31,359 nt of DNA, from NCBI RefSeq assembly GCF_006345805.1, contig NW_021832295.1:1-31359 (forward strand). The letters run 5' to 3'. Of the stretch, positions 30,471-31,029 are shown in pieces; the stretch's first letter is position 1; each line of letters starts with the position of its first letter. The notes under the pieces were generated by a model that saw only the letters and a list, made by a program, of their open reading frames with translations, made no database searches and had not been told where the DNA came from. The stretch comes from Octopus sinensis (Eukaryota). A program made the position numbers and the translations under genes.

Positions 30471-30557
30471 ACACACAACACTCACACACTACACACCCAG
30501 ATATATATATATATATATAATATATATATATAGATATATATAATATATTATATCTAA

Positions 30558-31029
30558 AGAAATATTAAAATTACTAAGTCTCTCTAAAAGAGAACAACGG
30601 CAGCGTTCCCGGAAAATATTAGTTATCGCCATACTAATATGGCATTCTTATAAAAATAGGAAAAAAGCTGACGCGCTTATTAGCTCCATGAGGCCATCGC
30701 CTTAAGTTAGCTATTTGATACACAAACTGTATCCTTAACCTTGAACAAGGAGGTCAGTCGCTCCACACTACTTGGCCGGCAGCTACAGACGCGTTTCGGG
30801 GTATTGCCCCTTTTCAATGCAGCGTAGCCAAACCAGTAGGTGTCGCTTCCGACACTCTGTTCAAAGTTTTATTTACCTAGCTTCGGTGGAATACATCCAC
30901 TTGTTTTCAATAATAGAAATATTAAAATTACTAAGTCTCTCTAAAAGAGAACAACGGCAGCGTTCCCGGAAAATATTAGTTATCGCCATACTAATATGGC
31001 ATTCTTATAAAAATAAGAAAAAAGCTAAC
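30558..31029 (-). mobile_element. Hammerhead-bearing non-coding retroelement (retrozyme-like or Penelope pseudo-LTR): 357-nt unit plus 115-nt terminal redundancy
   Basis: 30558-30672 and 30915-31029 are 113/115 identical direct repeats, with the hammerhead between them. Flanked by (TA)n and (CA)n. Confidence 0.75.
30768..30839 (-). ncRNA. Type I hammerhead ribozyme, U3-A8 core variant, extended stem I
   Basis: Minus strand CTACTGGTTTGGC-TAC-GCTGCA-TTGAAAA-GGGG-CAATA-CCCC-GAAA-CGCG-TC-TGTAGC-T-GCCGGCCAAGTAG. Predicted cleavage after GUC, between 30788 and 30787. Confidence 0.85.

Follow-up and report, generated by a model that had tools for sequence, protein, structure and literature searches.

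Of the systems described so far, the closest are the non-LTR retrozymes of metazoans (Cervera and de la Pena 2020, PMC7229834), among which the 350-390-bp repeats of Mytilus galloprovincialis come nearest. As described in that paper, Mytilus retrozymes are short non-coding tandem units with one canonical type I hammerhead each, a GC content below 50%, a self-paired predicted circle, and co-existing Penelope-like elements (PLEs). The octopus repeat shares these features, but differs in having a U3-A8 core, an explicit PLE insertion structure, and a resident site-specific LINE, and is known here from DNA alone. For vertebrate non-LTR retrozymes a preprint (bioRxiv 10.64898/2026.07.22.740005) proposes PLE mobilisation and reports mostly short arrays, as here; the vertebrate link to PLEs is through pLTR homology, whereas in the octopus it is through insertion anatomy, with no homologous pLTR among 50 PLE loci. 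The EN+ PLEs of the Neptune clade (PMC8557442, PMC11167929, PMC4209133) have tandem and inverted 5'-truncated arms, a tail set by two priming sites, microsatellite targets, and a hammerhead, all as in the octopus repeat; however, the octopus repeat has no ORF, its tail is ~63 nt rather than 30-40, and its hammerhead is canonical, not minimal. Newt satellite 2, according to a citation in PMC2220036, is likewise a repeat with a hammerhead, and an snRNA-type promoter drives its transcription; the octopus repeat belongs to a different phylum and its promoter is predicted only.

The LINE found in the octopus repeat resembles Tx1L (in Tx1D), Tx1-Mar, and Keno, which, as two papers describe them (PMC4494074, PMC4640811), likewise have two ORFs, an APE endonuclease, and a reverse transcriptase (RT), and sit at a fixed site, either within another repeat or within an snRNA gene, with tandem copies around a duplication. 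The octopus LINE differs in targeting hammerhead repeats, and is likened to these elements by features. A sister LINE in the same genome is inserted at +1 of a U2 gene, whereas Keno is reported at the site of Utopia, U2 nucleotide 38/39; Tx1 LINEs that target other transposons, satellites, or U2 are already known from the same sources (PMC4494074; PMC4640811).

A literature search found no reported octopus or cephalopod retrozyme, nor any LINE that targets hammerhead repeats or the start sites of such repeats; these families may nevertheless be recorded in subscription papers, Repbase, Dfam, or supplements. The main text of a 2026 Octopus vulgaris repeat annotation does not mention ribozyme, hammerhead, or retrozyme (PMC13282606). 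The retrozyme class is a known one, and what is likely new is a LINE at one fixed spot upstream of the ribozyme that coincides with a predicted snRNA-type start. The window, which is the whole stretch of 31,359 nucleotides analysed, probably holds a truncated copy of a non-autonomous, Penelope-mobilised retrozyme with an internal snRNA-type promoter, at whose predicted start the LINE sits in other copies. The DNA of this family records retrozyme movement, and its explicit PLE signature makes both the PLE partnership and the choice between circle and multimer directly testable. The resident LINE marks the probable start; hammerhead repeats with an snRNA-type promoter, cited for newts, would then occur in a mollusc as well.

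The window copy and its hammerhead

The hammerhead numbering, like the labels PSE, SNAPc, and Neptune, is applied in its established sense. The features of the window copy are as follows.

30558..31029, minus strand: family-1 hammerhead repeat, a 1.3-unit 5'-truncated copy (typical 362-bp unit ~118-362, then 1-232)
30782..30823, minus strand: type I hammerhead made up of stem I, a core with U3-A8, stem II, and a stem III that is a palindrome, with covariation and a predicted cut at 30788/30787
30823-30818 and 30787-30782, minus strand: stem I, GCUGCA/UGUAGC, with UAC 5' of stem I
30817-30811, minus strand: hammerhead core UUGAAAA
30810-30798, minus strand: stem II GGGG/CCCC with loop CAAUA
30797-30794, minus strand: hammerhead GAAA, then the palindrome ACGCGU and GUC with C17 at 30788
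30765..30845, minus strand: distal (extended) stem I surrounding the hammerhead, a predicted fold, with paired changes in family 2 seen by eye
30834..30850, minus strand: L1/Tx1-group LINE target, empty in this copy, whereas insertion has duplicated it elsewhere; the unit is predicted to start transcription at one of the first bases of this target
30891..30906, minus strand: PSE-like motif resembling the U1/U2 upstream element of the same genome, at offset -56 here and -59 in typical copies (p=0.0015 for the expected window)
30558..30616, minus strand: ~60-nt tail delimited by the fixed 3' ends at unit ~172 and unit ~235, the second of which this copy misses by a few bases
30558..30672, plus strand: direct repeat copy 1, at the 3' side where the 1.3 units overlap
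30915..31029, plus strand: direct repeat copy 2
30501..30553, no strand: (TA)n microsatellite at the 3' end of the repeat, likely PLE target

An earlier reading of the sequence alone had described a complete minus-strand hammerhead between 115-bp direct repeats in a 357-nt unit with no credible ORF; it mentions neither the internal snRNA-type promoter motif nor the site-specific LINE. All the hammerhead parts are present where that reading placed them, and the direct repeats are 98% identical and spaced 357. The unit length holds for the window copy but not for the family, whose typical unit is ~362 bp; the 357 bp result from small deletions relative to that unit, which may be assembly error. 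The 115-bp redundancy, for which a pseudo-LTR had been one proposed explanation, is likewise present but is not a designed terminal repeat: it arises from a fixed 3' end combined with variable 5' truncation, and the 3' end lies away from the ribozyme cut. The sole long frame overlapping the repeat, with 113 codons between stops and 89 aa counted from its ATG, is on the plus strand and extends into the (CA)n flank, so the repeat has no credible ORF, as had been stated; an RT plus GIY-YIG ORF, as in an autonomous PLE, is absent from the window element.

The U3-A8 core had been expected to escape a strict CUGANGA search, and Rfam 15 gives no hammerhead match even at E<=10 for a 476-bp stretch. 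A relaxed type I descriptor has a single match in the whole window, the hammerhead at 30782..30823, and 1/200 dinucleotide shuffles yields a motif with stem I of at least 6 bp and stem II of at least 4 bp. Folded in isolation, the 81-nt hammerhead is modest (z -2.16). The Rfam matches listed across the whole window were dismissed as microsatellite look-alikes of miRNA models, all under the gathering score. Positions 1-30500 are microsatellite-dense; the repeat families, the LINE, and two PLEs were looked for there, and none has a further copy.

Comparison across repeat families, which had been proposed as a check, shows that stems I-III covary. Sister family 2 (2741 candidates) is 79-90% identical in pieces to family 1; its stem II is AGGG/CCCU, with an A-U pair at the stem base, and its stem III is ACAUGU, which keeps the palindrome. 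Further families have all three stems altered, some with a C3-G8 core, and a perfect stem III palindrome is found in 5/8 parsed repeat examples, three more being unparsed. In arrays that were not chosen for an exact hammerhead, substitutions are fewer within the hammerhead (15/5278) than elsewhere (228/41716, p=0.005), a contrast to which base composition and assembly error may contribute. Hammerheads identical to that of the window occur in 105 of the 128 copies in genome-search arrays. By its sequence this is a real type I motif with U3-A8 in place of C3-G8, and it is predicted to cleave; the U3-A8 variant and the logic of dimer cleavage have already been published for Schistosoma PLEs (PMC4209133). 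Hammerhead repeats bounded by (TA)n make up at least four more families (L181-L210, L261-L292), and many family-3 copies have a GUU site instead of GUC.

Arrays, ends, and template of family 1

The genome searched comprises 2.72 Gb in 13,516 contigs, and all samples from it are best matches, skewed to young copies. Family 1 gave 784 candidates, of which the best 40 were scored, with full-length matches 94-98% identical; the hammerhead alone as query gave at least 725 candidate places. Whether copies would prove to be tandem had been left as a check, and they form short head-to-tail arrays of the ~362-bp unit (GC 0.41) in (TA)n. These are non-coding tandem units within the 150-450 bp by which retrozymes are recognised, with a type I hammerhead in each, and the arrays are dispersed over many chromosomes with unrelated flanks and no LTRs.

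The ends of 44 arrays, found independently of the LINE, were analysed with positions counted from the predicted cut. An inverted arm is present in 35/44 arrays. Outer ends fall into two fixed classes ~63 nt apart, with 42/77 at unit ~235 and 31/77 at ~172 (73/77 in all); (TA)n adjoins 71/73 of them, and 30/33 arrays with both ends measured have one end from each class. Tandem plus inverted truncated copies with a tail are the PLE insertion signature (PMC8557442), and the tail of a PLE is the stretch between two internal priming sites (PMC11167929). The fixed ends, inverted arms, and (TA)n of family 1 match this signature and so fit the known metazoan non-LTR retrozymes; the repeat is very probably a retrozyme of that known kind. 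Three arrays (L002, L047, and L050, on C3, C13, and C18) have a common inversion junction at unit ~14/~40 with 4-nt microhomology, although their ends and the lengths of their arms are not the same, so that the junction is either a hot spot or inherited. Another common inversion junction, at a small hairpin, was seen in L041 and L049.

Neptune-like PLEs are present in the genome: among 5029 GIY-YIG candidates, of which the best 150 were scored, are 781-aa RT plus GIY-YIG frames with a CxxxxCxxC linker, (TA)n ends, and minimal U3-A8 hammerheads. One young Neptune-like family (L158, L167, L228-L230) has open 781-aa frames, and ~65 nt separate its minimal U3-A8 hammerhead from the 3' end. In one member (L229:6002-7439, minus strand) the start of the PLE ORF is overlapped by a 479-codon frame situated upstream. 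The sequence-only reading had proposed mobilisation in trans by such a PLE. The insertion structure, with its inverted arms, two fixed ends, and (TA)n, supports this, but a partner was not found, as none of the 50 PLE loci compared (from the 5029 candidates) shares sequence with the unit. Contacts between PLEs and repeats at L167, L211, and L177, from BLAST of families 1-5 against the 50 PLE loci, were rejected as independent neighbouring insertions.

If the unit were the detached pseudo-LTR of an autonomous PLE outside the sample, then PLE-type ends would be expected, the 50 loci examined could have missed the parent, and the Xenopus retrozymes, described as sisters of pLTRs (bioRxiv 10.64898/2026.07.22.740005), would be a precedent. 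However, the earlier concern that all copies might simply be ends of coding PLEs is not borne out, since none of the examined family-1 arrays joins a PLE ORF and the LINE is the only coding neighbour; the arrays are short head-to-tail units, and the canonical hammerhead with its long stem I contrasts with the minimal ones of the sampled PLEs. A detached pseudo-LTR is accordingly unlikely.

In the non-autonomous retrozyme cycle preferred here, the PSE-like element would start transcription ~32 nt upstream of the hammerhead core. Tandem read-through is predicted to follow, with hammerheads pairing via the palindromic stem III, cutting, and releasing monomers that circularise. A Neptune-like PLE protein would then nick (TA)n and prime at unit ~172 and ~235, the two priming sites giving two 5'-truncated arms, one of them inverted. 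Copying beyond one unit, from a circle or a multimer, would restore the promoter, which is not part of the primary transcript; this would explain the need to copy beyond a single unit.

Whether the template is a circle or a multimer can be approached from variants within insertions. Over 43 arrays, 28/34 common variants and seven rare ones occur in every covering unit, often in both arms, while other rare variants comprise 119 singletons and nine found in subsets of units. Units diverge by 0.62% inside an arm, 0.72% from arm to arm, and 1.05% from array to array. This uniformity indicates that a single sequence variant is mostly the source of an insertion, as would suit either a circle or a multimer of uniform units. 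The nine subset variants and a two-unit period (in L028 units alternate at three variants, as from a dimeric template) indicate that a single monomer circle is not the sole template and that some templates are multimeric.

Transposition without circular RNA, from uncleaved linear multimers whose hammerhead is weak or protein-assisted, is a possibility of some weight, though not the expected one. It would account for the subset variants and the two-unit period, and for insertions that end at unit ~172/~235 rather than at the cut. Unprocessed RNA was moreover found to be the main PLE substrate, and the anole PLE inserts uncleaved RNA (PMC11167929); only one of nine Xenopus retrozyme dimers was cleaved in vitro, the other eight staying uncleaved (bioRxiv 10.64898/2026.07.22.740005). 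Against linear multimers, most variants are uniform inside one insertion, and arms of up to ~6 units (maximum 2217 bp) would be expected to become shorter with every generation unless circles or jumps between templates were involved. The circular monomer also has a strong predicted fold (z -5.7 against 60 shuffles in family 1; z -4.9 in family 2), and mussel repeats of equal size make abundant circles (PMC7229834). A circular RNA of the unit is given a slightly better than even chance. A pile-up of 5' truncations at the cut was considered as a sign of cleavage and rejected: the 141 5' ends appear by eye to be scattered over the unit, with 2/141 exactly at the cut and ~0.4 expected per position. 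The stretch occurs in 14 runs guessed to be RNA, and contigs of four of them cover the unit; the cover ends at the element edges (simple repeats being skipped), and as the contigs carry no strand, end, or circle information they are not counted as evidence.

The resident LINE

Enclosed in two arrays is a 5.35-kb element whose ORF1 has a CCHC knuckle and whose ORF2 combines APE, RT, and zinc-finger domains; one copy has both frames open. It is assigned to the L1/Tx1 group by domain make-up; its best solved relative is human L1 ORF2p, and the closest named LINE protein relative, from Argonauta hians, is 62% identical, which points to an octopod host. The family is small, with 49 candidates for a 70-bp piece of the 3' UTR. 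The target, equivalent to 30850-30834 of the window, follows 41/45 LINE 3' ends and is duplicated over ~17 bp, and 36/37 full-length 5' ends join it. Six other 5' breakpoints comprise two truncated copies on target with their own duplications, two truncated off target, one lost junction, and one internal interruption, with four more uncalled. Three of the four off-target copies are outer branches of the clade. Empty targets number 37, within 21/32 LINE-bearing loci, and the units flanking the LINE carry private markers of their own array, which is how Kojima tested against hitch-hiking (PMC4494074).

Alternatively, the LINE could be cargo, with unit plus LINE (5.7 kb) copied whole by PLE machinery or by duplication, so that apparent targeting would be descent from few insertions. 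The 36 full-length copies with an invariant 5' junction are compatible with cargo, as is the correlation of LINE and flank distances (Mantel r 0.34 and 0.24, p 0.0015 and 0.0055, 27 loci). One array, moreover, has 5/5 sites filled by LINEs, including the inverted arm (L114-L116, C3:72.500-72.530 Mb), and this array and the correlation are not predicted by purely independent insertion. However, the five LINEs of that array are mutually different, the two 5'-truncated copies on target have duplications of their own, the flanking units fit the private markers of their own array, and 37 empty targets lie beside LINEs. LINE-free arms have a median of 566 bp and a maximum of 2217 bp, and no truncated LINE was seen running into an inverted arm; three LINE clades also occupy the equivalent site of divergent repeats. 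Cargo transport is therefore improbable, and the LINE is judged with high confidence to be site-specific for the hammerhead repeat, just upstream of the ribozyme.

As the next step of the retrozyme cycle, the 5.35-kb L1/Tx1-group LINE inserts at the equivalent of 30850-30834 with a ~17-bp duplication, a step that the enclosed copies display. It would then borrow the promoter of the repeat, and target words at its 5' end may anneal to the target, giving exact full-length insertions. A LINE with intact frames and mostly full-length, exact insertions is of interest for understanding and engineering site-specific retrotransposition. Two further roles for the LINE were considered and rejected: it is not the mobiliser of the repeat, whose ends lack a LINE-type duplication while the LINE lies inside the unit with a duplication of its own, and it does not carry the entire upstream unit of its donor, as upstream units fit local markers. 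LINE copies in L111-L143 are mosaics of shared variants with a median divergence of 0.7%, which suggests recombination or template switching.

Predicted start sites and related targets

The U1 and U2 genes of this genome have a common motif ~59 nt upstream of +1, and a matrix was built from nine distinct promoter types. In 12/13 repeat rows the matrix has a site at p<=0.006 (family 5, p=0.07) at a distance of 56-62 nt on the upstream side of the LINE target, although the repeat families are related and the 13 rows amount to about three independent cases; the same matrix has a site at 1/16 of the other LINE sites. In family 1 the promoter core is degenerate, ACAAGT as compared with ATCAGT in snRNA genes, and over the whole unit two opposite-strand sites outscore the PSE-like motif. 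The PSE-like motif at kept spacing, taken together with the LINE target, makes both an internal snRNA-type promoter and LINE insertion at the start site likely; the promoter itself, as predicted from motif and spacing, is reasonably probable.

Sister LINEs use comparable places. Among the 18 loci of clade B, 14 belong to other repeat families and end ~25-30 nt before the hammerhead core, which is mutated in some of them, three are tandem copies on the same target, and one is at +1 of a U2 gene, so that 17/18 are in hammerhead repeats. Twenty further clade-B 5' junctions, from partly overlapping loci, join hammerhead repeats in 17 cases. Clade C has 5 of its 20 loci at the equivalent site of hammerhead repeats. 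The LINE subclades follow target families.

The U2 insertion (L275) lies within a U2 cluster, with a 14-bp duplication, and bears hammerhead-repeat target words at its own 5' end. Between two U2 genes lies another LINE, headed by U1 5' words (L280), which suggests a U1-targeting sub-lineage. Both sets of words are expected if LINE RNA starts at +1 of the donor.

The endonuclease of the LINE might instead read the DNA sequence at its target, as in Tx1L and Tx1-Mar, the link to start sites being coincidental or historical. Each LINE subclade mostly keeps one target family, and the family-3 target resembles the 5' ends of U2 and U1, so that sequence alone could explain the U2 insertion; family 2, furthermore, has the same promoter motif, and yet no LINE is present in 30 family-2 loci. 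On the other hand, the targets differ widely in sequence while the spacing to the promoter motif is kept. A TATA-like box lies 24-36 nt upstream at 7/14 other LINE sites as compared with 0.9 expected, a count that leaves out L294 and L298 (no defined duplication), becomes 5/11 without one near-duplicate and two (TA)n-embedded sites, and rests on a post hoc motif list chosen after viewing the sites. Sequence recognition has a little less than an even chance of being correct.

The wider proposal, put forward tentatively, is that an L1/Tx1-group lineage integrates at RNA polymerase II start sites and not at a fixed sequence. These would be of PSE type (U2 genes and several retrozyme families) and of TATA type (a PLE end and others), with the LINE perhaps tethered to initiation factors. 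One branch would have specialised on retrozymes, its RNA defined by the repeat promoter and the flanking ribozymes, and would be a hyperparasite, exploiting a ribozyme circle that in turn parasitises Penelope elements. If this lineage does find start sites, then it would represent a new targeting rule for APE-type LINEs.

As a separate observation, at one of the 20 clade-C loci the LINE has inserted near the 3' terminus, within the 3' end of a PLE from an autonomous family (L296, L211/L212/L220/L223), 30 nt past a TATA-like box and ahead of a hammerhead-like motif.
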